A stretch of DNA of 64,000 bases from Pyrinomonadaceae bacterium (lineage in GTDB: Bacteria > Acidobacteriota > Blastocatellia > Pyrinomonadales > Pyrinomonadaceae): contig DASWRI010000044.1 in the NCBI GenBank assembly GCA_036403235.1, positions 6,193 to 70,192 of the forward strand. Reading direction: 5' to 3'. This document shows, piece by piece, positions 5,041 through 53,044 of this stretch. Numbering within the stretch: the stretch's first letter is position 1; each line of letters opens with the position of its first letter. The notes under the pieces were generated by a model, which worked only from the letters and a program-made list of their open reading frames with translations, did no database searches and was not told the origin of the DNA. The position numbers were made by a program, and so were the translations under genes.

Positions 5041-5844
5041 TCAAAATTTCCTGACGAGATGATTTATCGGCGAATGACCTTTCCCGATATACGGCGCGGT
5101 GCGAATCGCTTCGGTGACGAACTTTTTCGAAATCCCGACGGCCTCAATCAAATTTTTTCCGTTTGCCAGATTCGCCGCAATCGCCGCCGCCAGCGTGCAG
5201 CCCGTCCCGTGCGTCGCCGTCGTTTCGATAAACTCAGCTTCAAAAATCTGCAAATTACTGCCGACAAACAAAAAATCTTTCGCGATACGTTTTTCGCCTT
5301 TCACTTGAAAAAGGTGTCCGCCTTTTATCAAAACATTTTTTGCGCCCGCCTGCTGCATCACCTGCGCGGCTTTTTCGATGTCTTTTTCCGTTTCGATTTT
5401 TATCCGCGCGATTCTTTCGGCTTCGGGAATGTTCGGCGTGACGAGGTCGGAAAGCGGAAAAAGTTTTTCGATGAGCGCGCGCAAAGCTGCGTCGTCAATC
5501 AAATCAAAGCCGGAAGTCGAGCGCACGACCGGGTCGACGACAAAGTTTTTCAAATTATTTTCCTCGACCAGGCGTGCGACTTCTTCGATTATCTCGCGTG
5601 TCGGCAGCATTCCGGTTTTCAGCGCGTCGATTTCAAAATCTTGTAAAATCGGCTCGATTTGCCCGCGAACGATTTCTGCGGTCTGCGCGACTGCGCCGAA
5701 AACTCCGGTCGTGTTTTGAAACGTAATCGAAGTTATCGCGGAAGTCGCAAAACAGCCGAAAACCGAGAAAATTTTGATGTCGGCGATAATTCCCGCGCCG
5801 CCCGAAGGGTCGAGCCCGGCGATTGTCAAAACAACTTTTGTCAT
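5041..5844 (-). CDS. thiD: hydroxymethylpyrimidine/phosphomethylpyrimidine kinase
   Basis: VLTIAGLDPSGGAGIIADIK N-terminus and GTGCTLAAAIAANLA C-terminal motif. 267 aa. Confidence 0.9.
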   Translation of the reverse strand: MTKVVLTIAGLDPSGGAGIIADIKIFSVFGCFATSAITSITFQNTTGVFGAVAQTAEIVRGQIEPILQDFEIDALKTGMLPTREIIEEVARLVEENNLKNFVVDPVVRSTSGFDLIDDAALRALIEKLFPLSDLVTPNIPEAERIARIKIETEKDIEKAAQVMQQAGAKNVLIKGGHLFQVKGEKRIAKDFLFVGSNLQIFEAEFIETTATHGTGCTLAAAIAANLANGKNLIEAVGISKKFVTEAIRTAPYIGKGHSPINHLVRKF

Positions 5845-12464: not shown

Positions 12465-12675
12465 AATGAAATCAGAATCCGAACGTTTGATAAGAAAAAG
12501 AATATTATCGAAGAGGTGGACGGCAATCTTAGCTAAACTGCCAAATTTAAGCTAACATGTTCCGGTAATTTATGTCAACGTGTTTTAACAATATTTGTTA
12601 TTTTTAACGTAAAATTTTTGTAAATTCTCAACTTTGATTTTTGCAGCGTAATTTTTTAGTCTAATTCTTTGTCAA

Positions 12676-12744
12676 AGTCTGGAGTCTCAAGTCTGAGGTC
12701 TTGAGTCAAAGATTTTCCGACTTGAGACTTCAGACTTGAGACTC
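12676..12744. repeat. heptamer-word inverted repeat, AGTCTNA family
   Basis: agtctggagtctcaagtctgaggtcttgagtc, then an 11-nt loop, then gacttgagacttcagacttgagactc. Ends 10 nt before ATG 12755. Confidence 0.8.
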
Positions 12745-12754
12745 GATTTTATTT

Positions 12755-15174: not shown

Positions 15175-15320
15175 GCGAAAAGAAAAGACAGAAAAAAGAC
15201 GGCGAGGGCAAAAACAAGAATAATCAGCGAATGCGCGCCGCCAATGATAAAGACACGGGCGCGAAAAACGGCATCGATACCCGCGAGGACGATAAATCGG
15301 CGGGAAAATCGAAAAATTAG
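15171..15320 (+). CDS. 49-aa highly charged microprotein candidate, translationally coupled
   Basis: ATG 15171 overlaps the upstream TGA (ATGA). Translation MSEKKRQKKDGEGKNKNNQRMRAANDKDTGAKNGIDTREDDKSAGKSKN. Below the ORF-track cutoff. A hairpin follows immediately. Confidence 0.3.
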   Translation: MSEKKRQKKDGEGKNKNNQRMRAANDKDTGAKNGIDTREDDKSAGKSKN

Positions 15321-15380
15321 CTGAAAAGTAAAAAATGAAAACTGAAAGGTGAAAACAACTTTCAGTTTTCATTTTTCAGC
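15320..15380. repeat. heptamer-word inverted repeat, TGAAAAN family
   Basis: gctgaaaa gtaaaaa atgaaaactgaaag, loop, then ctttcagttttcatttttcagc. The 5-prime arm carries exactly one extra heptamer relative to the 3-prime arm. Confidence 0.85.
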
Positions 15381-15417
15381 TCTCACTTCCTTCCGGTTTC
15401 GGTGATAAAATATTTCT

Positions 15418-19324: not shown

Positions 19325-19930
19325 ATGAAAGGATTTTTGAATTTCGGCGGATTTGCATTTTTAGCTTTTATGGCTTTAACGGCGGCGTCGACGGTTTTTG
19401 CGCAGAACGCAAAGGAAACATACACGGGAACGGTTTTAAGTTACGGCACGGGCTTAAATACGAGAAGCACGACGCGCACTTTTACGCTCAACATCACCGG
19501 AACGACCTCCGACACCGAGGCGAAAGGTTTTCTCGCTACTTTGCGCGATAAAGGTCAGAGCACTCTGCTCGATGAAATCAACGACGAAAAACTCGGAAAT
19601 TTTTCGGTCGGCGGTCGTATCGGGCCGACGATAAACGTCGTGCGCGAAAGCGATGTTGACGGGCAGAGAAGAATTTTTGTCGTCTTTGAGCGCTGGATGC
19701 AGTTTGCCGAGCTGCGCGGCGGTTATCGCTCGACCGACTACCCGTTCGGAGTTATCGAGCTGTTTATGGACGAGCGCACCGGAAAGGGAACCGGAACTTA
19801 TATCGAAGCCGCCAAAATCCGCTGGAATTACGACGATAAAAGCAAGCAATATCAGGTGGAAATCGAAAACTTCGCGACGTTTCCGGCAAAGCTTCTCGGC
19901 GTCACGCAAAGCGGCGGAAGAGGCAGATAG
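19325..19930 (+). CDS. secreted hypothetical protein
   Basis: Signal peptide MKGFLNFGGFAFLAFMALTAASTVFAQ. 201 aa. No motif recognised. Confidence 0.55.
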   Translation: MKGFLNFGGFAFLAFMALTAASTVFAQNAKETYTGTVLSYGTGLNTRSTTRTFTLNITGTTSDTEAKGFLATLRDKGQSTLLDEINDEKLGNFSVGGRIGPTINVVRESDVDGQRRIFVVFERWMQFAELRGGYRSTDYPFGVIELFMDERTGKGTGTYIEAAKIRWNYDDKSKQYQVEIENFATFPAKLLGVTQSGGRGR

Positions 19931-19985
19931 GGAAGTGAAAAGTGAAAAGTTTAAGAATCTTTTCTAAACTTTTCACTTTTCACTC
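19931..19985. repeat. heptamer-word inverted repeat, GTGAAAA family
   Basis: gaagtgaaaagtgaaaagttt, loop aagaatcttttct, then aaacttttcacttttcactc. The loop is nearly identical to the copy at 48846-48886. Confidence 0.85.
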
Positions 19986-20247
19986 AGTAATTTATTACTT
20001 TAACGACGCCGGTCTTGAATTTCTCCGGGTTCGGCGAGGGCGTTTTGGTCAACGTGAATTTGTGATTATAGCGGTCGGCCGCCTCTGCCGCCGGTATGCT
20101 CTGCCATTCGTATTTGATGACGGCGCCGTCGCCGAATTCGTAGATTCTTTCGATTTTATCGGCGGTGTAAACGGTCGGCGTCTCCTTCGCGATTTTGTCG
20201 CGCTCGTCGTAAATAATAATGTTTGCGTATTCTTCGGCGTTTTTCAT
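19984..20247 (-). CDS. hypothetical small protein
   Basis: 87 aa, MKNAEEYANIIIYDERDK... Flanked on both sides by GTGAAAA-word repeats. Confidence 0.45.
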   Translation of the reverse strand: MKNAEEYANIIIYDERDKIAKETPTVYTADKIERIYEFGDGAVIKYEWQSIPAAEAADRYNHKFTLTKTPSPNPEKFKTGVVKVINY

Positions 20248-21064: not shown

Positions 21065-21835
21065 ATGGAATTATTAAACTTCGACAAAGAATCCACCGAA
21101 GGCGGAAACTTAAGGCTTATTTCCGAAAGGCGCGAGCCGCAGCCGTTTCCCCAAATCGAAAAACAGTTCGTCAACTTCATCTTTTTTCGCGTCAATCCCG
21201 AATGGCGAAAATTGAACGCCGAAACAAAACGCATCTTTAAATCCGAGTTTCAGAGCGTTTTTAATAAGTTCAGCGAAAATCTTCTGCTTTTTTCCTATTC
21301 GCTCGTCGGCTTTGACTCAAAGGCCGATTTGATGTTCTGGCGCATCGGCGACTCGCTCGATTCGATTCAGGACATGACGGCGACGCTGTATCGCACAAAT
21401 CTGGGAAGCTTTCTCGAAACCGCCGACAACTACCTGGCGATTACGAAAAAAATGATGTTCGTCGCACCCGACGAGCACGAATCGATTGAAGACCGCTTTC
21501 ACGTCAAAGCGGGCGCGAAAAAATATCATTTCGTATACCCGTGCGCCAAACATCGCGATTGGTATGAAAAAACGGGCGAAGAGCGCAAAGAGCTGATTGA
21601 AGAAAATTTTATGGTCGGGAAAAAGTTCGACAACATAAAAATTCACCTGACGCACGCGTTCGGCTTCAGTGAGCAGGAATTTATCGTCAGCTTTGAAACC
21701 GACGAGCCGAAAGATTTTCTCGCGCTCGCCGAAGAGCTGCGCCAGACGACGGCGAGCAAATTCACTTTGCGCGGAATGCCGATTTACACGTGCCGCCAGC
21801 GCAGTTTGATGGAATGTCTCGATGCGATAGGATAA
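21065..21835 (+). CDS. chlorite dismutase-family protein (HemQ/coproheme decarboxylase-like)
   Basis: 256 aa. FVNFIFFRVNPEWRKL and YHFVYPCAKHRDWY blocks are typical of the Cld/HemQ fold. Confidence 0.7.
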   Translation: MELLNFDKESTEGGNLRLISERREPQPFPQIEKQFVNFIFFRVNPEWRKLNAETKRIFKSEFQSVFNKFSENLLLFSYSLVGFDSKADLMFWRIGDSLDSIQDMTATLYRTNLGSFLETADNYLAITKKMMFVAPDEHESIEDRFHVKAGAKKYHFVYPCAKHRDWYEKTGEERKELIEENFMVGKKFDNIKIHLTHAFGFSEQEFIVSFETDEPKDFLALAEELRQTTASKFTLRGMPIYTCRQRSLMECLDAIG

Positions 21836-21916
21836 GAATTACGAATTTCAAATTACGAATTACGAATCCAGAACTTATTTCTTTAATTCATAATTCGTAA
21901 TTTAAAATTCGTAATT
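21836..21916. repeat. heptamer-word inverted repeat, GAATTAC family
   Basis: gaattacgaatttcaaattacgaattacgaat, loop, then aattcataattcgtaatttaaaattcgtaatt. Fills the spacer up to ATG 21922. Confidence 0.85.
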
Positions 21917-21921
21917 AAATT

Positions 21922-22884: not shown

Positions 22885-22958
22885 GCTCCCGTAGCTCAGC
22901 TGGATAGAGCGTTCGCCTCCTAAGTGAAAGGCCGCAGATTCGAATTCTGCCGGGAGCA
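22885..22958 (+). tRNA. tRNA-Arg (anticodon CCU)
   Basis: Acceptor gctcccg/cgggagc. D arm gctc-agctggata-gagc. Anticodon stem ttcgc/gtgaa with loop CUCCUAA. T arm gcaga-ttcgaat-tctgc. 74 nt with no encoded CCA. Confidence 0.9.
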
Positions 22959-22967
22959 AATCATATA

Positions 22968-23001
22968 AAAGCGGTGCAGAAATTTATCTACACCGCTTTG
23001 T
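22968..23001. terminator. hairpin terminator between tRNA and convergent giant gene
   Basis: aaagcggtg(c)aga, then aattta, then tctacaccgcttt. Confidence 0.6.
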
Positions 23002-23022
23002 CTTTTCTAAATTCGAAACAAT

Positions 23023-26000
23023 CTACGGAACAAAAGCATTTTCAGTCGGAACGTCGGTCGAAACGCCGAACTGGAAAGCCGTCACGCCGGCGCTCGACCT
23101 CATCAGATACCAGACGCCGGTCGATGGCCTGAAGACCGCGATATCGGCGCGCCCGTCGCCGTCGTAATCGGCCGGAACGGGTTTGTCTTCGGCTATTCCG
23201 AAAGCGTTTATCGTAAACGAGCCGTTCGAGCTGTTGATGATATACCAGACACCGTTTGACGGTCGATAAACGGCGATGTCGGTTTTTCCGTCGCCGTCGA
23301 AATCGGCCGGTGCGGGAACATCGGTCGATATTCCCCAGCGCGTCGCCCGCTGCGCATTATCGATGCTGCTCTGATACCACCAATCGCCGGTCGAGGGCCG
23401 AAAGATGGCCGGGTCGACTTTGCCGTCGCCGTCGAAATCACCGCGAACGGGTTTGTCGCCCGCCAGACCGAACGGGATAATCGAAACCGCTCCGGTCGTG
23501 CCGAGTCGATACCACGTGTTGTTCGACGGGCGGAAAACGATGAAATCGGCTTTTCCGTCCGAATCAAAATCGCCCGGACGCGGCACGTCGCCGCTCGCGC
23601 CCCAGTGAACAAAATTCTGCGTGTTGTTGATGCTCGACAAAAACCACCAATCGCCCGAAGCCGGACGGAAAATGCCGATGTCGGTTTTGCCGTCGCCGTC
23701 GTAATCAGCGGGCGCGGGCACGTCGCCGGCGAGACCGAACGTCTGCTCGGCAACGGTTGCGTTGCTCAATAATTCATACCAGCGATTGGTCGAAGGCCGG
23801 AAAGCCGAAACGTCGGCGCGGCCATCGCCGTCGTAATCGAATAACGTCAAAAGCGGCGCGGAGGCATTTAAAAGACGCTTGACTCTGACTCCGGAAACGC
23901 CGTTGACCTTTGTAAACTCGCCGCCGATAAGAATTTTTCCGTCGGTTTGCAGATTTATATCCCAGACCGATGTATTGGTCTCGCCGCCAAAACTCAAATC
24001 GAACGAGCCGTTTGCGTTAAGACGGGCGATTCCGATTCGATATTGATTGCCGACTGTGCTCATCGCGCCGCCGATAAGAATTTTGCCGTCCGGCTGAATC
24101 TTGACGGCTAAAATCGTCGCGTTGGCCGTCTGGACGAACGACGTATCAAGCGTGCCGTCGGCATTGAGACGCCCGACTTTCTGCATATTGCTGTTTCCGT
24201 TTAAGGCCGTAAACTGACCGACTAAAACGACCTTGCCGTCCGTCTGCAAATCGATGTCATAGACGACGTCGTTGGCGCCGCCGGGCGGATTAAACGTATT
24301 GTCGAGCGTGCCGTCGGCGTTCAGGCGCGCGATTCTGCCCCGAATGTTTGACGCGATAGTCGAAAAAGTGCCGCCGATTAAAAATTTCCCGTCCGGCTGA
24401 ACAAGAACTTTGTTAACCAGTCCGGGCGCCTGAACGCCGATAAAAGTGTTGTCGAGCGAGCCGTTGGAATTTAATCTTTCGATAATTTTGCTGTTCGAGC
24501 CGCCGACCGTAATAATCTTTCCGTCGGGCAATACGGCAATATCGTTGATTCCGATTGTTCCGCCCCAGGTAAAGCCGGTATCGCGCGAGCCGTCAGGATT
24601 GAGTCTGACGAAATTGACGGCGGTTCCGATAATTAAAATTTTACCGTCCGGCTGCAGAGCAATCGACCGGATGGTAGGATTGCTCGTCGTAAAAGTCCCG
24701 TTGTAATAAGGCACAAAAGATGTGTCGAGACTTCCGTCGGCGTTCAGACGAGCGAGCGATTGACGGACAACGCCGTTGACCGACGGAAATTCGCCGGCAA
24801 TCAGGATTTTTCCGTCCGGCTGCTGCAAAATCCGCGTAACGATTCCCAGTCGTCTGACTTTGACATCAAAAGCGCTATCGGTTGTGCCGCCCGCATTCAA
24901 GCGAAGAATCGGATTTGCGCCGCCGACTAAAGGGTAGATTTGACCGCCGATAAGAATTTTCCCGTCCGATTGCAGCTCGATATCGAAAATTGGTATTAGC
25001 GCGGCGGCCTGCGCGTTGTTTGAAAACGAATTATCGAGCGTGCCGTCGCTGCTGAGCAGCGCGAGATTTCTGATATTTACCGCGTTATAAGAAGGAAAAT
25101 CGCCGGCGATGAAAATTTTTCCGTCGGGGCGAATGATTATATCGTTTATACCGTAGGAGGAGCTGCCCGCGCCAAAATTATTGAGGTTAAAATTCAAATC
25201 CAAACTTCCGTCCGAGTTTATGCGCGAAATCCTTCCTTGCTGAAATCCGTTGACGAAGGTAAAGCTGCCGCCGATGATGAGCTTTCCGTCGGCCTGTATT
25301 TTAACGACTTCAATCGTCTGATTGACCGTCACCAGAGAAAAGCCGGAATCGACTGAACCGTCGGCGTTGAGCCTTCTCACGTAGTTCTGCGGGCCGGACA
25401 TCCCGGTGATGAACACAACTTTTCCGTCCGGCTGCACTTCGATGTCTTTGATGAGCCCGATGCCGGTCGCCGAAAACGAATTGTCGGGCGTGCCGTCGGC
25501 GTTAAATTTAGCGATGTTCCGGCCGAATTCGCCGCCGATAAAAAATTTATCGTTCGGCAGCACTTCGATGGTGTAAATGTTGCTGTCCTGCGGCACGGGC
25601 AAATTAAAAGAAGAATCAATCGTCCCGTTCGGATTAAGACGCATGACGGCGGGCGCAAAAACTCCGTTGATGCCGTATAAACTGCCGGCGACGATAATTT
25701 TCCCGTCCGATTGGAGGCCGAGCGCGAGAACTCTCGCCCCGAGCGAGCTGCCGTTAAAAAAAACCGGCGGATTAAACGACGTATCGACGCTGCCGTCCGC
25801 GTTAAGCCGTCCGACTCCGTTCGCCGCCTGTCCCTGCACGTCTGTAAAAATGCCGCCGATGAGAATTTTGCCGTCCGGCTGCGTTTTAACAACATAGACA
25901 AGCCCGTTGGTCGTGCCGCTAACCGCAGCGTTAAAGCTCGCATCGACTTCGCCCGCCGCCTTTGCCGCCGAAACAAAGATTGCGCTCAACAGAACGCAGA

Positions 26001-26046
26001 ATGCCGGAATTAAAAATGCGCGCAGAAGCTTTTGATATTGATTCAT
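23023..26046 (-). CDS. secreted giant repeat protein: delta-60-type beta-propeller repeats plus six C-terminal FG-GAP/VCBS-like repeats
   Basis: Signal peptide from ATG 26046 (MNQYQKLLRAFLIPAFCVLLSAIFVSAAKA). About 13 repeats of the LNADGSLDTSF...QPDGKILIGG type. C-terminal six D(Y/F)D(G/S)DG(K/R)xD repeats. Confidence 0.8.
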   Translation of the reverse strand: MNQYQKLLRAFLIPAFCVLLSAIFVSAAKAAGEVDASFNAAVSGTTNGLVYVVKTQPDGKILIGGIFTDVQGQAANGVGRLNADGSVDTSFNPPVFFNGSSLGARVLALGLQSDGKIIVAGSLYGINGVFAPAVMRLNPNGTIDSSFNLPVPQDSNIYTIEVLPNDKFFIGGEFGRNIAKFNADGTPDNSFSATGIGLIKDIEVQPDGKVVFITGMSGPQNYVRRLNADGSVDSGFSLVTVNQTIEVVKIQADGKLIIGGSFTFVNGFQQGRISRINSDGSLDLNFNLNNFGAGSSSYGINDIIIRPDGKIFIAGDFPSYNAVNIRNLALLSSDGTLDNSFSNNAQAAALIPIFDIELQSDGKILIGGQIYPLVGGANPILRLNAGGTTDSAFDVKVRRLGIVTRILQQPDGKILIAGEFPSVNGVVRQSLARLNADGSLDTSFVPYYNGTFTTSNPTIRSIALQPDGKILIIGTAVNFVRLNPDGSRDTGFTWGGTIGINDIAVLPDGKIITVGGSNSKIIERLNSNGSLDNTFIGVQAPGLVNKVLVQPDGKFLIGGTFSTIASNIRGRIARLNADGTLDNTFNPPGGANDVVYDIDLQTDGKVVLVGQFTALNGNSNMQKVGRLNADGTLDTSFVQTANATILAVKIQPDGKILIGGAMSTVGNQYRIGIARLNANGSFDLSFGGETNTSVWDINLQTDGKILIGGEFTKVNGVSGVRVKRLLNASAPLLTLFDYDGDGRADVSAFRPSTNRWYELLSNATVAEQTFGLAGDVPAPADYDGDGKTDIGIFRPASGDWWFLSSINNTQNFVHWGASGDVPRPGDFDSDGKADFIVFRPSNNTWYRLGTTGAVSIIPFGLAGDKPVRGDFDGDGKVDPAIFRPSTGDWWYQSSIDNAQRATRWGISTDVPAPADFDGDGKTDIAVYRPSNGVWYIINSSNGSFTINAFGIAEDKPVPADYDGDGRADIAVFRPSTGVWYLMRSSAGVTAFQFGVSTDVPTENAFVP

Positions 26047-26327
26047 TTCTTTATAAAATACGCGATTTATATTGAAATATCCACAAATTTTTTTTGGCCG
26101 GCCGGATTGCTTTTTATTTATTTGAAAATATTTTTCGAAATTTTTGGAAAGCAAAAGCGAATAAAACTTTCTAATAAGTAACGGAAGATAACGGTGGTCA
26201 AGCGCAATGGCAAGCAATTTGGCTTAACTTGGGGATTCCGTGTTCTGTTCACAATCTTCGTATAAAATGTCTTGAGCCGTATTTGACCGAATGCGGCTTT
26301 TTTCTTTTTAAAATTTCCAAAATTCGT

Positions 26328-26537
26328 TCGTGCAAATTGTTAAGGCGCTCGTGCAAAAGAATAAATCACGTCTGCAAAACGATAAACCGTCCGTGCAAAC
26401 GAATAACTCGCTCGTGCAAACGAATAAACCGTTCGTGCAAAAGAATAAATGCTTCGTGCAAAACTGTAAACGGCTCGTGCAAAACTGTAACTCGCTGGTG
26501 CAAAGAAATCTTTCGTTCGTGCAAAAATTTGTACGGG
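26328..26537 (+). repeat. array of 10 direct repeats with exact 21-bp period (core TCGTGCAAA)
   Basis: Core starts at 26328, 26349, 26370, 26391, 26412, 26433, 26454, 26475, 26496 and 26517. Consensus TCGTGCAAAnGAATAAAnCGn. Confidence 0.92.
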
Positions 26538-26640
26538 CGCGGACAAGCCGCCGCCGATACATTTTTCTCGCGCTTTTTGTTTCAATTTCACGAATTTCTT
26601 CTTTGCGTCTTTCGCTTCATTTGTGGCAACTTAAAGGTGT

Positions 26641-28278
26641 ATGCAAAAAGTCCTTTCAGCCGCCGAGATGCGCGAAGTCGACCGCTTGACGATTGAAAAA
26701 TACGGCATCCCGTCGATTCTTTTGATGGAAAACGCCGCTCACGCCGCGGCGCGCGCGATTGCCGAAAAGCTCGGCGGAACGGTCGAGGGAAAGACGTTTT
26801 TAATTTTATGCGGCAAGGGCAACAACGGCGGCGACGGTGCGGCGCTGGCACGCGTTTTATGGACGCAGGGCGCACTAATTTCCTGCGCGCATTTATTTGG
26901 AAAAGTTGAAAAAGCAAAAGGCGATGCTTACGTCAATTTTAATATATTGAAAAAATTTGATAAGCAAAATACTTTAAAGACAAATTGGGTTTTTGTAGAA
27001 GAATTTGAAGAAAAGCCGGAGGATTTGAAAAAATGGCAAAGGCAGACTCATTTCGAATCTTACGACGTGATTATAGATGCGCTCTTCGGGACGGGTTTGT
27101 CCCGGCCGGTTGAGGAAGAATTAAAAAGCATTGTAATTAAAAGATTAATCTCCTTAAAACAAAGAGATTGGAACGAGTCGCTTATTATTTCTCTCGATTT
27201 GCCGTCAGGATTAAACGCTGATTTAGCCGCGCCGATTGGCGAAAATGTAAAGGCAGATTTAACTGTCACTTTCACCGCGCCGAAGCCCGCGAATGTGCTT
27301 GCGCCCGCGTCGAATTTTGGCGGCGAGCTGGTCGTCGCAAATATCGGTTCGCCGCAGGAATTAATCGACAATTCGCCTTCGCAGTTGTTTTTAGCCGAAA
27401 AAGAAGACGTAAAAATCTGGCTCGAAAAAACGAAATTTACGAGCGATTCGCACAAAACGACGCGCGGGCGGGCGATTTTTGTGGCGGGTTCGAGAAATAT
27501 GGCGGGCGCGGCCGTTCTGGCGGCAAACGCGGCGATGCGCAGCGGCGTCGGTCTGATTCGCGTCGCGACGGCCGAATCGGCGCAAAACGCGGTTTCTTCG
27601 CACGCTTACCCGGAAGTGATGGTCGCCGGGCTTCCCGAAACCGAAGACGGCGCAATTTCCGCGGAAGCGTTTGAAAAAGTCGGGAAGCTTTCCGAGAAAA
27701 TGCACGTTTTATCAATCGGGAGCGGTTTGTCTTCGAATGAAGAAACGACCAGGAATTTTGTGCGAAAAACGGTCGAAAACCGAAAAACTCCCGTCGTCAT
27801 CGACGCCGACGGTCTGAACGCGCTCGCGCCGTTTGATTTGGAGGGAAGCAACAAATACCCTCTGATTCTGACGCCGCACGTCGGCGAGATGCGAAAGCTT
27901 CTCGGAAATGAAAAGGAAGATTTCAAAGACCGAGTGAAAATCGTCAGGGATTTTGCCGCCAAACATCGCGTCATTTTAGTTTTAAAAGGCGAGCGCAGCT
28001 TAATCGCCGCGCCTGATGGCCGCGTCGTCATCAATCCGACCGGAAATTCCGGGCTCGGCCGCGCCGGAAACGGTGACACGCTCGCCGGAATCGTCACCGG
28101 ATTTGTCGCGCAGGCCGTCGCCATGAAGCTCGATATTTTCGATTCGGTCGTCGCCGCGCTTTATGTGGCGGGCCTTGCGGGCGACATCGCCGAGCGAAAA
28201 TTCGGCAAACGCGTCATGACCGCTTCCGACGTGCGCGACTGCCTTTCGAGCGCATTTCGAGAAATTGAGGAAAATTAA
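26641..28278 (+). CDS. nnr: bifunctional NAD(P)H-hydrate epimerase / ADP-dependent dehydratase
   Basis: N-terminal YjeF_N block (CGKGNNGGDG) and C-terminal kinase-like block (GNSGLGRAGNGDTLAG). 545 aa. Confidence 0.9.
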   Translation: MQKVLSAAEMREVDRLTIEKYGIPSILLMENAAHAAARAIAEKLGGTVEGKTFLILCGKGNNGGDGAALARVLWTQGALISCAHLFGKVEKAKGDAYVNFNILKKFDKQNTLKTNWVFVEEFEEKPEDLKKWQRQTHFESYDVIIDALFGTGLSRPVEEELKSIVIKRLISLKQRDWNESLIISLDLPSGLNADLAAPIGENVKADLTVTFTAPKPANVLAPASNFGGELVVANIGSPQELIDNSPSQLFLAEKEDVKIWLEKTKFTSDSHKTTRGRAIFVAGSRNMAGAAVLAANAAMRSGVGLIRVATAESAQNAVSSHAYPEVMVAGLPETEDGAISAEAFEKVGKLSEKMHVLSIGSGLSSNEETTRNFVRKTVENRKTPVVIDADGLNALAPFDLEGSNKYPLILTPHVGEMRKLLGNEKEDFKDRVKIVRDFAAKHRVILVLKGERSLIAAPDGRVVINPTGNSGLGRAGNGDTLAGIVTGFVAQAVAMKLDIFDSVVAALYVAGLAGDIAERKFGKRVMTASDVRDCLSSAFREIEEN

Positions 28279-39655: not shown

Positions 39656-40804
39656 ATGAAACTTGACGTTCTCATAATCAGAATCGGATTCGTCGCATTG
39701 CTGATGGTGCTCGGCTTTATCCTCAATCCGTTTGAAAAAACGGCTCGGCTCGGTTTTGACTCAATCGGTAACGATATTCGACCGTTTTTGTCGGCCTTGT
39801 TCGGCGGCATTATCGCGCTTTTTATTATCGCCTTTGAAATGCGTGTGCGGCGCGTTTCGCTGAAAACTCTTATCGGCGCGGCCATCGGCTCGATTTTGGG
39901 AATTTTGGGCGCGTTTTTAATCGGCGTTCTGATTTCGATTCAAAAAGAAGCGGCGGTTTCAGCCGAAATGCAGACGTTCTTGACGATTTCACTGGCGTTT
40001 TTTATGGGCTACATCGGTCTCATGGTCGGCGCGGCGAAAGGCGAATATCTTGATTTATCGGTTCTGGGCGGGATTTTTTCCGACAAAAACGTCAAGCGCG
40101 ACTGCAAAGTCCTCGACACGTCCGTCATCATCGACGGGCGCATCGCTGACGTTGCCGAAACCGGATTTTTGGGCGGAACTTTGATAATTCCGCAGTTTAT
40201 TTTGACCGAGCTGCAGCAGGTCGCCGATTCGCCCGACTCGTCAAAACGCCAGCGCGGGCGACGCGGGCTCGACATGCTCCAGCGCCTGCGCAACAATTCG
40301 AAAATCGACATCCAGATTATCGAAACCGATTTTCCGCAGGTGCGCGAAGTCGATTTGAAACTAATCGAGCTCGGCAAACAGCTCGACGCCGTTATCGTCA
40401 CCAACGATTTTAATTTGAACAAAGTTTCGCAGCTTCGCGGCGTGCAGGTTTTGAATATCAACGAGCTCGCCAACGCGCTCAAACCGGTCGTTCTGCCGGG
40501 CGAAGCGATGCGCGTTTTTGTCTTGAAAGAAGGCAAGGAATACAATCAGGGCGTCGCATATCTGGACGACGGAACAATGGTCGTCATCGACAACGCGCGG
40601 CGGCTTATCGGCAAAACCGCCGACGTCGCGGTGACGAGCGTGTTGCAGACGACCGCCGGAAAAATGATTTTCGGGCGTCTTTGGGAAGAAAAAGACGAAA
40701 ATTACGAAAACTCGCCGAACATTCACGATTCGCGTGCGACCGGTTTCAGAAAAACCGCGCGCGATATGCAGAGCGTCAGTTTTATTCCGAATAACGAAGA
40801 ATAA
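39656..40804 (+). CDS. membrane-anchored PIN/TRAM-domain protein (YacL-like)
   Basis: Four N-terminal TM helices, a PIN block VLDTSVIIDGRI...TNDFNL, and a C-terminal TRAM-like beta domain. Confidence 0.8.
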   Translation: MKLDVLIIRIGFVALLMVLGFILNPFEKTARLGFDSIGNDIRPFLSALFGGIIALFIIAFEMRVRRVSLKTLIGAAIGSILGILGAFLIGVLISIQKEAAVSAEMQTFLTISLAFFMGYIGLMVGAAKGEYLDLSVLGGIFSDKNVKRDCKVLDTSVIIDGRIADVAETGFLGGTLIIPQFILTELQQVADSPDSSKRQRGRRGLDMLQRLRNNSKIDIQIIETDFPQVREVDLKLIELGKQLDAVIVTNDFNLNKVSQLRGVQVLNINELANALKPVVLPGEAMRVFVLKEGKEYNQGVAYLDDGTMVVIDNARRLIGKTADVAVTSVLQTTAGKMIFGRLWEEKDENYENSPNIHDSRATGFRKTARDMQSVSFIPNNEE

Positions 40805-40878
40805 GTGAAAAGTGAAAAGTGACAGGTGATAGGTTTTGTTTTCACTTATCACTTTTTAATTATCACTTATCACTTTTT
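40803..40878. repeat. heptamer-word inverted repeat, GTGAAAA/GTGATAA family
   Basis: aagtgaaaagtgaaaagtgacaggtgatagg, loop, then ttcacttatcactttttaattatcacttatcacttttt. Occupies the entire yacL-ispD spacer. Confidence 0.9.
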
Positions 40879-41592
40879 ATGAACGTTGCGATTATAGTTG
40901 CCGGCGGAAGCGGAACCAGATTCGGCGGCGAAATCCCGAAGCAGTTTGTCGAAATTTGCGGAAAGCCGCTCGTCGCGCACACGCTCGATGCGTTCGAAAA
41001 TTGTTCTTCGATTGACGAAATCGTCCTCGTTTTGCCCGCCGTTGAGCTCGAAAATTTCAGAAAAAAAAATAACTCGATTAAATTAAAAACGATTGTCGCG
41101 GGCGGAAAAACCCGCGCCGAATCGGTTTTTAACGGTCTGCAGGCTGTCTCCGGCAAAGCGGAAATCGTCGCCGTTCACGACGGCGCGCGCCCTCTGGTTT
41201 CCGCCGAAGAAATTTCCCGTACAATCGAAATGGCGAAAGAGACGGGCGCGGCGTGCCTGGTCGCGCCCGTCAGCGATACGATAAAAAAAGTTTCCGGCGG
41301 AAAAATAATCGAAACCGTCGACCGCGAAAACTTACGCCGTGCTCTGACGCCGCAGGCATTTCGGCTGGAGATTCTGCAAAAAGCGTTCGATGCGGCCGAT
41401 TTGAGCGAAGCGGCGACCGACGAATGTTTTCTGGTGGAAAAAGCGGGCTTTGAAATCGCGACGGTCGAAGGCAGCGCGAAAAACATCAAGATTACGACCC
41501 GCGAAGATTTGATTTGGGCAGAAGTTTTTTTAAGAGAGAAGTCGGATAATGGATGCCAGATGTTAGAATCCGGCTTCTTTTCTAAAATCTGA
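40879..41592 (+). CDS. ispD: 2-C-methyl-D-erythritol 4-phosphate cytidylyltransferase
   Basis: MNVAIIVAGGSGTRFG N-terminus. Start moved to ATG 40879. The ORF-track extension only translates the repeat (FHLSLFNYHLSLF). Confidence 0.9.
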   Translation: MNVAIIVAGGSGTRFGGEIPKQFVEICGKPLVAHTLDAFENCSSIDEIVLVLPAVELENFRKKNNSIKLKTIVAGGKTRAESVFNGLQAVSGKAEIVAVHDGARPLVSAEEISRTIEMAKETGAACLVAPVSDTIKKVSGGKIIETVDRENLRRALTPQAFRLEILQKAFDAADLSEAATDECFLVEKAGFEIATVEGSAKNIKITTREDLIWAEVFLREKSDNGCQMLESGFFSKI

Positions 41593-51014: not shown

Positions 51015-51392
51015 TCAAAATGCTTCCAAAAATTCGACGCGGTTACCGAACGGGTCGCGAAACTCGAAGCGATTGTAATCGGGAATCGGCACGCCTTCCA
51101 AAATGCGCACGCCGCGCGCTTCGAGCTTTTCGCGCCAGCCTTCCAGATTTTCCACCTGATAAGCGACGTGCGCTTTTGTTTTCGTTCTATCAAAATTGTC
51201 TTCCGTCCCGATGTGAATCTGAAACGCGCCGACTTCGAGCCAGAATCCGCCGCGTCCTTCTAAAGACTTGGGCTTGGGAATTTCCTTTAATCCTAAAAAA
51301 TCGCAGTAAAATTCACGCGCCGCCGCTTCAGCGCCCGTCGGAATCGTTATTTGCGCGTGCTGAATTTTCAGAATTAAAAGCTTTTTTATCAT
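51015..51392 (-). CDS. VOC-family (glyoxalase/bleomycin-resistance/dioxygenase) protein
   Basis: 125 aa. HAQITIP...H(I)GTED...EFRDPFGNRVEF pattern. Confidence 0.8.
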   Translation of the reverse strand: MIKKLLILKIQHAQITIPTGAEAAAREFYCDFLGLKEIPKPKSLEGRGGFWLEVGAFQIHIGTEDNFDRTKTKAHVAYQVENLEGWREKLEARGVRILEGVPIPDYNRFEFRDPFGNRVEFLEAF

Positions 51393-51413: not shown

Positions 51414-51644
51414 TTTTCAGACCTCATCGTAAAGTTTTCAACGGTCAGAAAATCATTTTCAACGTGCAGAAAATACTTTTCGACACTTCAAAAATCATTT
51501 TCAACACTCCGAAAAGTCTTTATGAGACGTCGAAAAATTTATTTGACATACAGAAAACCTTTTGTGACGCTCAGAAAATCTTTTGCAGCACGTCGAAAAT
51601 CTTTTGCGACATACGAAAAACTTTGTGCGAAGCCTCGCAAAATC
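51414..51644 (-). repeat. array of 11 direct repeats with exact 21-bp period (minus-strand unit aGATTTTCnnnnGTnnnnAAA)
   Basis: Plus-strand units start at 51414, 51435, 51456, 51477, 51498, 51519, 51540, 51561, 51582, 51603 and 51624. Lies between the coaD stop and the VOC start. Confidence 0.92.
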
Positions 51645-51692: not shown

Positions 51693-52187
51693 TTAAGACG
51701 ATTTCAATTTATCGCGCATTTTTAGCTCGACCGATTCGGGCACGAGACCTTCGACGCGGCCGCCGAGCGTGAAAATTTGTTTCAAAAGATTCGATGAAAC
51801 ATACGAATATTCTTCGGCCGCCATCAGAAAAACCGTCTCGATGCTCGGTTCAAGGCGACGGTTCATCAAAGCCATCCGCAGCTCGTATTCGTAATCGGAA
51901 ACGGCGCGAATGCCGCGCACAATCGCCGTCGCGCCGCGTTTTTTTGCAAAATCGGCGGTCAGACCGGAAAAGCCGTCGACAATCAGACGGCATTCTTGGC
52001 TTTCGATTTGAGGCAGAATTTCTTCAATCATACGGCAGCGTTCTTCAACGGAAAACATCGGATTTTTGTCGGGATTATTTAAAACGGCGATGATGATTTC
52101 GTCAAAAAGCGGCAGGCTTCGCTTGATAATGTCGAGATGACCGTTGGTTAAAGGGTCGAACGAACCGGGAAAAATTGCGCGGCGCAT
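51693..52187 (-). CDS. coaD: phosphopantetheine adenylyltransferase
   Basis: MRRAIFPGSFDPLTNGH from ATG 52187. The ORF-track extension translates the repeat (FTFHFPLFTLHLL). Confidence 0.92.
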   Translation of the reverse strand: MRRAIFPGSFDPLTNGHLDIIKRSLPLFDEIIIAVLNNPDKNPMFSVEERCRMIEEILPQIESQECRLIVDGFSGLTADFAKKRGATAIVRGIRAVSDYEYELRMALMNRRLEPSIETVFLMAAEEYSYVSSNLLKQIFTLGGRVEGLVPESVELKMRDKLKSS

Positions 52188-52193
52188 ATTTAG

Positions 52194-52252
52194 TAAGTGT
52201 AAAGTGAAAAGTGGAAAGTGGAAAGTGAAGAAAAGGTTCTTCAACTTTTCAC
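52194..52252. repeat. heptamer-word repeat, NAAAGTG family (six tandem words, short return arm)
   Basis: GTAAGTG TAAAGTG AAAAGTG GAAAGTG GAAAGTG AAGAAAA ... cttttcac. Fills the spacer between the TPR lipoprotein gene and coaD. Confidence 0.85.
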
Positions 52253-52255
52253 TAA

Positions 52256-53044
52256 TCAGAATCTCGTTTCCAAAAGCTTCTTCGCCTTTTCGACGCATTC
52301 TTTGTGTTCGAACGTATATTCGGGACCGGGCTTCATCTTTAAGATATATTCGAGCTGTTTTTTCGCATCGGCGTCGCGGCCGACCGCCAGATAAGCTTCT
52401 GCCAGATGCAAATAAATATAGGTGTTTTCCTTTTCGATTTCGAGAGCTTTTTCCAGATATTCGACCGCTTTTTCCGGCTTTCCGCCGGCGAGCATTCCGG
52501 CTTTCATCTCGACCTGCGCCAGCGCGTCGTAGGCGCTGGCGGCTTGATAATTAGGCTGGATTTCGATGACTTTGTTCATCTCGGAGCGAATCTCGTCGAT
52601 GGCTTTAATGCCGACCGTGACCGGGCTTCGCCGAGCCTGTTCGCCTAAATTAGCGCCGTACCAGAAGTGTCCGTCGGGTTTCTCGGGCTCCATTTTGGCG
52701 GCGATTTTTCCGGCCTGCACGCCGTCTTCAAAAGCCTTTTCGATTTCCTTTTCGTCCGGGCTATGTTTGCCGAGAAAAAAATTATATTTGGCGAATTTCC
52801 ATTCCGATTCGTAATTTCGAACGTCGGGATTACGCGTTCGGGCAAGTGTCTGAACGGCTTCGCGCAGTTTCGATAAATCGTCGCGCTGCTGGAAAAGCTC
52901 GTCGGCTTTGGCGATGGCGTCGGAGAAAAAAGTCGGTGTTATTTTCTGCTTAAAATCCTCAGTTACGCCTTTTGACGCGCACGCCGAAGCGAAAATCACG
53001 AAACATGCAATTGTAATAAAACGGTAAAATCTTATCCTTTTCAT
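52256..53044 (-). CDS. TPR-repeat lipoprotein
   Basis: Lipobox-like FASACAS after the signal peptide. TPR-like helices (AEAYLAVGRDADAKKQLEYILK). Confidence 0.7.
   Translation of the reverse strand: MKRIRFYRFITIACFVIFASACASKGVTEDFKQKITPTFFSDAIAKADELFQQRDDLSKLREAVQTLARTRNPDVRNYESEWKFAKYNFFLGKHSPDEKEIEKAFEDGVQAGKIAAKMEPEKPDGHFWYGANLGEQARRSPVTVGIKAIDEIRSEMNKVIEIQPNYQAASAYDALAQVEMKAGMLAGGKPEKAVEYLEKALEIEKENTYIYLHLAEAYLAVGRDADAKKQLEYILKMKPGPEYTFEHKECVEKAKKLLETRF

Follow-up and report, generated by a model that had tools for sequence, protein, structure and literature searches.

The window analysed here is a stretch of 64,000 nucleotides of chromosomal DNA from an uncultured soil Pyrinomonadaceae bacterium of the Acidobacteriota (metagenome-assembled genome, GenBank assembly GCA_036403235.1, contig DASWRI010000044.1), and our subject is a tandem array of ten 21-bp units within it, array 1, which lies upstream of nnr. 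The order at the locus is a phosphoribosyltransferase gene, tRNA-Arg(CCT), a minus-strand gene encoding a DUF5122/FG-GAP propeller protein, array 1, and then nnr-tsaE-ykuD; the remaining genes of the window encode metabolic enzymes, transporters and uncharacterised proteins. A reading of the bare sequence (the original prediction) had described the ten repeats and offered three roles for them: an iteron-like platform for cooperative protein binding, a curved upstream element, or a transcribed repeat RNA.

Anatomy and phase of array 1

The units of array 1 start at 26328 + 21k (k = 0-9) and follow one another without a single insertion or deletion. Each consists of a 9-nt core, TCGTGCAAA on the plus strand or TTTGCACGA on the minus strand, and a 12-nt variable spacer. 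The exact TCGTGCAAA core is present in seven of the ten units, and the other three carry GTCTGCAAA, CCGTGCAAA and TGGTGCAAA. Position by position, the unit number, 21-bp steps, starts and core variants listed in the original prediction proved correct. Self-identity at a lag of 21 rises to 0.75 in array 1 (126-nt window), against a mean of 0.28 (sd 0.054) over the full 64 kb, in which only one other place gives such a peak (array 2, at approximately 51.4-51.65 kb). Tandem Repeats Finder likewise returned period 21 plus multiples of 21, and a search for TCGTGCAAA-N12-TCGTGCAAA with up to three mismatches gave eight matches, all within array 1, while shuffled sequences averaged 0.23 and none of 100 shuffles reached eight. 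A second assembly (Logan SRR10998591, L002) is 100% identical over the entire spacer containing the array, which is therefore not an artefact of a single assembly run. Array 1 is real and far beyond chance: a bacterial chromosome here carries a tandem array that is locked in phase at 21 bp.

The two parts of the unit have diverged very differently. Mismatches to the consensus occupy 5 of 90 cells in the core and 42 of 120 in the spacer (Fisher 1e-7), as had been claimed in the statement that one half is conserved and the other drifts; in the array of the relative L123, described below, the corresponding counts are 9 of 108 and 42 of 144 (Fisher 3e-5), although both Fisher values overstate the contrast because the columns of a tandem array are not independent. 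The invariant columns of the array 1 unit are six contiguous core columns (4-9) together with column 14. The spacer has drifted by approximately 35%, and most of its columns show three or four different bases, with an information content of 0.2-0.6 bits. Over four arrays, 44 units could be read in register with zero indels, despite some 210 mismatches to the unit consensus.

Related nnr loci and a second array in the window

To place array 1 in its family, approximately 60 Pyrinomonadaceae regions upstream of nnr, fetched from metagenomes, were compared with the window. L123, whose Nnr is 76% identical to that of the window, carries 12 units at 21 bp (CGTCTGCACGCTCTTCCGCCG; 64% GC). L124 (Nnr identity 73%) has two units, TCTGCACG, located about 60 and 81 nt before the ATG. 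L154 (57%) has blocks of 7 and approximately 4-5 units, unrelated in sequence and mutually inverted. About 55 other relatives have no 21-bp array in the nnr spacer. Copy number at the orthologous locus is therefore 2 in L124, 10 in the window, 12 in L123 and 0 in most others, and phase is kept without indels as the number varies, which is the behaviour that the original prediction had proposed to look for. Within the population, two assemblies contain the locus and are identical, and the next-closest Nnr sequence found is the one at 76% identity.

The plus-strand core of L123 and L124, TCTGCACG(C/A), matches the minus-strand TTTGCACGA of the window at 7-8 of 9 positions, so that the three genomes share a core of T[C/T]TGCACG whose orientation in the window is inverted relative to the other two. 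When the unit profiles of array 1 and L123 were compared, the inverted orientation scored 4.93 and the direct one 3.67, and none of 500 column permutations reached 4.93. The core, which had been reported on the plus strand, is accordingly best read on the minus strand. The spacers are unrelated, being AT-rich in array 1 and GC-rich in L123. The two units of L124 align with the last two units of L123 and with window positions 26538-26579; since these terminal units are orthologous in all three genomes, a proto-array of two or three phased sites appears to be ancestral to the small clade. By this comparison, the window and L123 arrays would be independent expansions in opposite orientation, with the same core, the same period and unrelated spacers. 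A core that is kept irrespective of strand fits recognition of DNA rather than RNA.

Searching for further 21-bp arrays, as had also been suggested, revealed a second, independent one in the window. Array 2 again has ten units without indels, and it is flanked by the coaD stop at 51693 and the ATG of a glyoxalase gene at 51392. Two sources identify the gene before it as coaD (pantetheine-phosphate adenylyltransferase), and a link through NAD between the two arrays was rejected because this gene is not nadD. In a relative with a 92% identical CoaD, coaD and the glyoxalase gene overlap by 4 bp, and in others the gap is 27-82 bp. At the corresponding position L574 has two or three proto-units (TTCCGAA...21...TTCCGAA; GTTTGAAAAAATGA), so the site holds 10 units in the window as against 0-3 proto-units in relatives. 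Judged from these loci, array 2 appears to have had the same history as array 1, namely a small phased seed followed by lineage-specific expansion. The open reading frame (ORF) before array 2 (51693-52298, minus strand) spans 201 aa, and the real CoaD product in the protein collection has 164 aa; a heptamer array, (AAGTGAA)5, at 52195-52229 lies just upstream of the shorter coaD start, inside the mechanically longer ORF.

The surroundings of array 1 are summarised in Table 1.

Table 1. Positions of the two arrays and of the features around nnr, in window coordinates
Feature	Position	Strand	Remarks
Array 1, ten 21-bp units	26328..26537	(-)	Strand is that matching the orthologous arrays; from unit starts, lag identity and profile comparison
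Array 2, ten 21-bp units	51423..51632	-	Consensus TGTCGAAAAAGATTTTCTGAG on the minus strand; between coaD and the glyoxalase gene
nnr (bifunctional NAD(P)H-hydrate epimerase/dehydratase)	26641..28278	+	Followed by tsaE and a YkuD gene
Conserved RNA-like element, ~190 nt	26119..26311	+	Upstream of array 1; intrinsic terminator at its end
Degenerate promoter-proximal stretch	26538..26621	+	26538-26579 corresponds by orthology to both TCTGCACG units of L124 and to the final two of L123
Conserved TTTGTGGCAAnTT motif	26620..26640	+	In most orthologs, TGGCAA precedes the ATG by 15-18 nt

The RNA-like element has nhmmer matches upstream of nnr in 41 related loci besides the window, always on the plus strand (L123:5507-5699, L124:5652-5849 and 39 further loci). 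It begins with a promoter-like TTTnTGGAA...TTTnTAnnAA, continues with AACGGAAGA..GGTGGTCAAGCGCAGTGGCAAGC and then ..TCTGTTCACAATCTCC, and ends in a terminator (stem 26274-26299 plus a T-run) in which seven of nine stem pairs show compensatory changes. No Rfam family matches the element, which is a candidate for a new small RNA or for an nnr leader or riboswitch-like element of Pyrinomonadaceae. In L123 and L124 it directly follows the tRNA with no propeller gene between, and the propeller gene (1007 aa, 22885-26217, between tRNA-Arg(CCT) and the element) is therefore an insertion in the window lineage. For this gene the start ATG 26046 is likelier than the annotated TTG 26217, because the latter would overlap the conserved element. 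In place of the propeller gene, L124 has at 5172-5648 a 158-aa ORF rich in Cys/His motifs (CxxC, DH, CxxCH), which to the eye looks like an HNH endonuclease. The original prediction had assigned array 1 to a 594-bp divergent region; the array does lie inside that gap, but this is not a plain divergent promoter region, since the conserved element with its terminator intervenes and the array sits between the terminator and the nnr-proximal control region.

Between array 1 and nnr, two remnants of the core in plus orientation can be recognised, TTTCACGAA at 26586-26594 and CTTTGCGTC at 26601-26609, the latter conserved in the window, L123 and L124. Nearly all orthologs keep TTGTGGCAAnTT just before the nnr ATG and begin the gene with ATGCAAAAAGTT, a start that is conserved at the nucleotide level over approximately 58 orthologs and has no clear Shine-Dalgarno sequence. 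The TTTGTGGCAAnTT region is possibly an extended -10 or translation-start element of nnr, in which case the mRNA may be leaderless or have a short leader. An upstream CTTTTTG could pair with CAAAAAG at the nnr start.

Coding, RNA, curvature and replicon alternatives

The possibility that array 1 encodes a protein with a seven-residue repeat has some superficial appeal, in that a minus-strand ORF of 83 aa has been called there by the Joint Genome Institute and its frame reads (F/V)CT every seven residues (FCTxxLx). The array contains no stop codon in four of the six frames, but open frames are expected for any 21-bp repeat. The mismatches are spread evenly over the codon phases (15/14/18), with no period-3 pattern of substitution. 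Furthermore, the codons that flank the putative Cys and Thr codons change radically, yet those two show no synonymous variation (TGC in all 10 units, ACG in 9 of 10). The plus-strand frame of L123 reads (V/I)CT, and the peptide shared between the two genomes is confined to the Cys-Thr pair encoded by the core, on opposite strands relative to nnr. The ORFs called over the arrays have no Pfam match on record. A homologous heptad-repeat protein, which the original prediction had named as the outcome that would overturn it, did not emerge; the coding heptad was rejected, and we consider such a protein extremely improbable.

A structured RNA was rejected as well. Minimum free energy z-scores are -0.96 for the plus strand and -0.09 for the minus strand of array 1 and -1.35 for array 2, and an Rfam scan of the window returned tRNA as the only passing family, with nothing meaningful at E <= 10 in 26000-26700. 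The transcribed repeat RNA that had been proposed is thus not borne out as a folded species, and the inverted orientation in relatives argues against a strand-specific role. An element acting in RNA without folding has to be weighed separately: the array would be transcribed, on its own or in an nnr leader that reads through the upstream terminator, and its repeated A-rich motif would either enhance translation or be recognised by an RNA-binding protein (S1, CsrA or an Hfq-like sponge). In other bacteria, it has been suggested that direct repeats of heptamers ahead of start codons serve as sites for post-transcriptional regulators (PMC4679880). In both arrays of the window the A-rich strand is the sense strand and a start codon follows directly. 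There is also a likeness between the core GTGCAAAAG and ATGCAAAAAG, the highly conserved start of nnr, and no structure is predicted for the region. However, the orthologous L123 array is GC-rich with its core on the opposite strand, a covarying intrinsic terminator lies immediately upstream, and the wider set of arrays described below has no strand bias with respect to neighbouring genes. In addition, we know of no RNA-protein repeat system in which a strict 21-nt spacing would be expected. Altogether, and with the lack of structure also weakening it, a role in RNA seems to us rather improbable.

Curvature was assessed with a wedge model, whose parameters are approximate. The ratio of end-to-end to contour length is 0.70-0.83 for array 1 and 0.80-0.83 for L123, compared with 0.93-0.97 for shuffled sequences (p <= 0.013), and the predicted curvature is lost when the period is set to 19, 22 or 23. 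These values suit a purely architectural element, in which in-plane bends would add up to a curved upstream segment or a target for nucleoid-associated proteins with no sequence-specific reader. Yet permuting the columns while keeping the 21-bp period gives sequences that are just as curved (fraction at least as curved 0.09-0.3), and array 2 is not curved in this model. The curved element of the original prediction therefore survives as a prediction of curvature, but of the curvature that any 21-bp periodic sequence has. Because curvature also leaves the conservation of a specific 9-nt core unexplained, we regard a purely architectural role as quite unlikely.

Iterons and type II centromeres consist of some ten direct repeats two helical turns apart, a geometry that array 1 shares and that could point to replicon iterons or the partition centromere of a plasmid, chromid or integrated element. 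Like plasmid iterons (P1, F, R6K, pPS10 type) and parC of R1 and pSK41, array 1 is built of head-to-tail repeats of about two helical turns on one face, with a conserved recognition core, a less conserved remainder and a copy number in the range of 4-12; iterons are tandem direct repeats of 17-22 bp, and the ten units here are of exactly 21 bp. Unlike them, it is chromosomal and precedes a housekeeping gene, its surroundings lack rep and par genes, an AT-rich unwinding element and DnaA boxes, and it is lineage-specific and fast-evolving. The only DnaA box close to it is a single one-mismatch box at 26077, with no cluster, and cumulative GC skew rises steadily over the window without a turn at 26 kb. 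A search of 72,556 plasmids and 50,697 phages gave no similarity to array 1. Neither the annotation stored for L001 nor Pfam scans, run on 29 ORFs of the window, revealed a transcription factor, Rep, Par, Cas or integrase in the 64 kb, in agreement with the earlier statement that no cas or rep gene is nearby. Gene order, moreover, is syntenic with relatives that have no array. A replication origin or plasmid remnant was rejected on these grounds, and a replicon or partition function is in our judgement barely conceivable.

Several other candidates were tested and discarded. CRISPR, which the original prediction had already set aside, is contradicted by the period of 21, which is below the approximately 24-48 nt of CRISPR repeats, by 'spacers' that are mutually homologous (nnnnTAAnnCGn) and by the lack of cas domains in the window. 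A higher-order heptamer repeat was rejected because no 7- or 14-nt signal remains: identity at lags 7 and 14 is 0.11-0.22 in all five arrays, compared with 0.58-0.88 at lag 21. Resemblances to sigma-54 and AlgR sites, spotted by eye, fail at critical positions. For sigma-70, there is no plus-strand promoter match inside array 1, the sole plus-strand match being upstream at 26032-26059, and there is one weak match on the minus strand inside the array.

Two candidate explanations: an expanded operator or a minisatellite

Our preferred, though still tentative, explanation is that array 1 is an expanded direct-repeat operator, a set of same-face protein-binding sites with iteron-like or LytTR-like geometry. 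Among the three roles first proposed for the array, a platform of this kind is the best supported, and it is put forward here from comparative sequence analysis. The ancestor would have had an ordinary direct-repeat operator, in which sites of 8-9 bp, two or three in number and spaced by two helical turns, lay just ahead of the promoter or start of nnr. Adjacent sites may then have undergone slippage or unequal crossing-over, by which the 21-bp unit was amplified independently in two lineages, and amplification between neighbouring sites would fix the period at exactly 21 bp. The core would have been kept because a putative sequence-specific DNA-binding protein still reads it. With all sites on one face of the helix, several copies of the protein could load side by side, as on iterons or LytTR-type operators, and the likely effect would be to strengthen, buffer or titrate nnr-tsaE regulation or to insulate nnr-tsaE from the upstream transcription unit.

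Operators of the LytTR family of regulators (AgrA/AlgR/ComE) match array 1 in layout, as a 9-bp direct repeat is followed by a 12-bp spacer and the next 9-bp repeat (PMC2766830), the same division as in the unit of array 1. The two-copy state of L124 is located just upstream of a putative promoter, which is where LytTR operators sit. Unlike these operators, array 1 has ten copies rather than two, and there is no LytTR gene in the 64-kb window. The LytTR repeat consensus is said to be [TA][AC][CA]GTTN[AG][TG], as reportedly described by Nikolskaya and Galperin in 2002, and the GTT at its centre is absent from both TCGTGCAAA and TTTGCACGA.

The principal competing explanation is that array 1 is a near-neutral minisatellite, or variable-number tandem repeat (VNTR), in a lineage exceptionally prone to tandem repeats, its conserved core being a microhomology that drives or homogenises the repeat and has no function of its own. 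A microhomology role has been proposed for the core sequences of minisatellites. Since copy number differs between relatives, array 1 fits the broad VNTR definition; like bacterial VNTRs of the mycobacterial interspersed repetitive unit (MIRU) type, it is tandem and intergenic, the number of its units varies among related genomes, and slippage or unequal crossing-over is the most likely way in which it grew. In favour of neutrality are its sporadic distribution and fast turnover, with 0, 2, 10 or 12 copies, and the behaviour of array 2, which arose between genes that overlap by 4 bp in the relative with the 92% identical CoaD.

The lineage is indeed rich in repeats. Across 491 kb of Pyrinomonadaceae loci we counted 82 heptamer and 10 octamer arrays, and 21 is the sole period above 13 with at least 3.5 copies, counting arrays listed under multiples. 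The nnr spacer itself is a hot spot for repeats, whose period is 7, 8, 9-10 or 21 depending on the relative. Its hairpins, built of inverted 7-10-nt tandem repeats, are conserved in structure and not in sequence, the unit differing between genomes; examples (L189, L150, L134, L174, L167, L196, L160 and others) take the form (GTGAAAAA)n/(TTTTTCAC)n or (CACGAAnnnA)n/(TTTCGTGnnn)n. In the window, heptamer arrays occur at 2330-2415, 12670-12750, 15315-15385, 19925-19990, 21830-21920 and 40795-40880, and also at 1539, 20319, 22280 and 52195; their units are of several types (GTGAAAA, GAATTAC, TCAGACT and others), arranged as inverted pairs in intergenic positions right after stop codons. These pairs fold as very stable hairpins (z = -4.7 to -8.5), resemble short tandemly repeated repetitive (STRR) sequences and probably act as terminators or insulators built of slippage-prone units. 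Abundant, lineage-wide, short intergenic tandem repeats are a feature that this genome and family share with the STRR-type heptamers of cyanobacteria, Beggiatoaceae and Bacteroidetes (MacGregor 2015). The 21-bp arrays differ from those heptamers in having neither a 7- or 14-nt signal nor hairpins, whereas the local heptamers are inverted pairs with z of -5 to -8.

Similar arrays are also widespread beyond the family. A scan of 185,579 species genomes for four copies of TGCAAA at 21-bp spacing yielded at least 120 loci in many phyla. The period is truly 21 in 107 of the 120 arrays listed, and most are not inside long ORFs. An all-against-all BLASTP comparison of the ORFs flanking the listed arrays revealed no recurrent neighbouring gene, the only clusters being translated repeats, and no preference for strand or promoter side relative to neighbouring genes was seen among them (30:26 and 27:24). 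A cross-phylum 'TGCAA(A) family' was rejected, because in units outside the seed match TGCAAA is mismatched at 16% and the rest of the unit at 18% (p = 0.06). The listed arrays are generic minisatellites and not relatives of array 1, and their existence in such numbers, mostly outside long ORFs and without a consistent neighbour or orientation, is a further point for a neutral origin. Intergenic 21-bp arrays of 10-30 units were noted in many other phyla (L118, L109, L093, L048, L019, L070 and others). The one most like array 1, L100:7197-7574 from an Acidobacteriota metagenome-assembled genome, has TGCAA in 17 of 18 units, 30% mismatch elsewhere and no indels. At each of several loci (L075, L092, L094, L102 and L120), at least two separate arrays of period 21 occur, and their units differ. 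We found no paper on bacterial chromosomal 21-bp arrays in the literature searched.

As to the period itself, two hints favour 21: it is the only long period in the Pyrinomonadaceae loci, and the 868 kb around the genome matches contained 17 additional arrays of period 21 and at most two of any other period of 15 or more. The second hint is weaker than it appears, given that about two thirds of the 17 adjoin the seed array. In a control with viral contigs, scans at periods 20, 21, 22, 18 and 24 gave 16, 93, 23, at least 118 and at least 119 loci, respectively, of which 8, 22, 8, at least 13 and at least 16 had the true period and lay outside long ORFs. Periods 18 and 24 are thus at least as common as 21, and enrichment is seen at each multiple of 3. 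These data do not establish a '21-bp rule' of general validity.

What speaks against a purely neutral array is the pattern of change within it. Six contiguous columns are unchanged while the columns adjacent to them changed several times each; four arrays contain no indel at all; and an 8-9-nt core has been kept in two expansions, independent and opposite in orientation, whose spacers are wholly different. Homogenisation should have homogenised the spacers too, and it has not. In these respects, namely a core sharply conserved against a diverged spacer, strict phase and recurrence of the core in an inverted independent expansion, array 1 departs from VNTRs, and the contrast between core and spacer and the constraint on phase are unusual for one. 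We therefore regard the neutral minisatellite as somewhat doubtful.

A number of observations nevertheless weigh against the expanded operator. Uneven conservation of columns is common in generic 21-bp arrays: among 55 from other phyla, the best 9-nt window reaches p < 1e-3 in 19 and p < 1e-5 in 5, and array 1 would rank second in this set. Taken together with the non-independence of columns, this means that the p-values for array 1 overstate the case. The shared core and phase that the original prediction looked for in related genomes are present in L123 and L124, but a period-21 array occupies the nnr spacer only in L123, L154 and the window among the ~60 regions; 21 of 41 other orthologous spacers have a highly stable hairpin where the array would be (z < -2, down to -11). 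With only 3 of about 60 spacers holding a 21-bp array and half of the others holding unrelated hairpins, the array is dispensable for nnr. Relatives have an operon at the position of array 2, and the core of array 2 resembles that of array 1 at best marginally (p = 0.06). A search for a regulon within the window found no enrichment of the core beyond array 1, with three TCGTGCAAA-type sites outside it, one of them inside array 2, where about six would be expected window-wide. There is, finally, no DNA-binding regulator, Rep or Par gene in the 64-kb window. Whichever explanation holds, array 1 is a lineage-specific variation on the tandem operator or the minisatellite.

A broader and considerably more speculative idea, which we think unlikely, is that phase-locked 21-bp arrays are a recurrent and previously undescribed class of chromosomal 'operator expansions', in which a same-face pair of sites would grow into a platform of 10-20 sites with one sequence-specific protein polymerising along it, as a chromosomal equivalent of iterons. 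If true, this would account for 21 bp being the only long period in Pyrinomonadaceae loci, for at least three origins there (the nnr locus of the window/L123 clade, L154 and coaD), and for the fact that no other period of at least 15 nt is as common as 21 among the additional arrays near 21-bp arrays in other phyla.

If array 1 is neutral, the locus would still be useful as a hypervariable marker for Pyrinomonadaceae, and it would illustrate how a binding motif can be mimicked by uneven conservation in a minisatellite. If instead the core is read by a protein, array 1 would represent an ordinary two-site operator caught in the act of growing into an iteron-like chromosomal platform, and it would offer a handle on the regulation of the NAD(P)HX-repair/t6A operon in the poorly studied Acidobacteriota. 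In that case, the repeated and independent appearance of arrays of exactly 21 bp would suggest that helical phasing filters which intergenic tandem duplications survive in bacteria.

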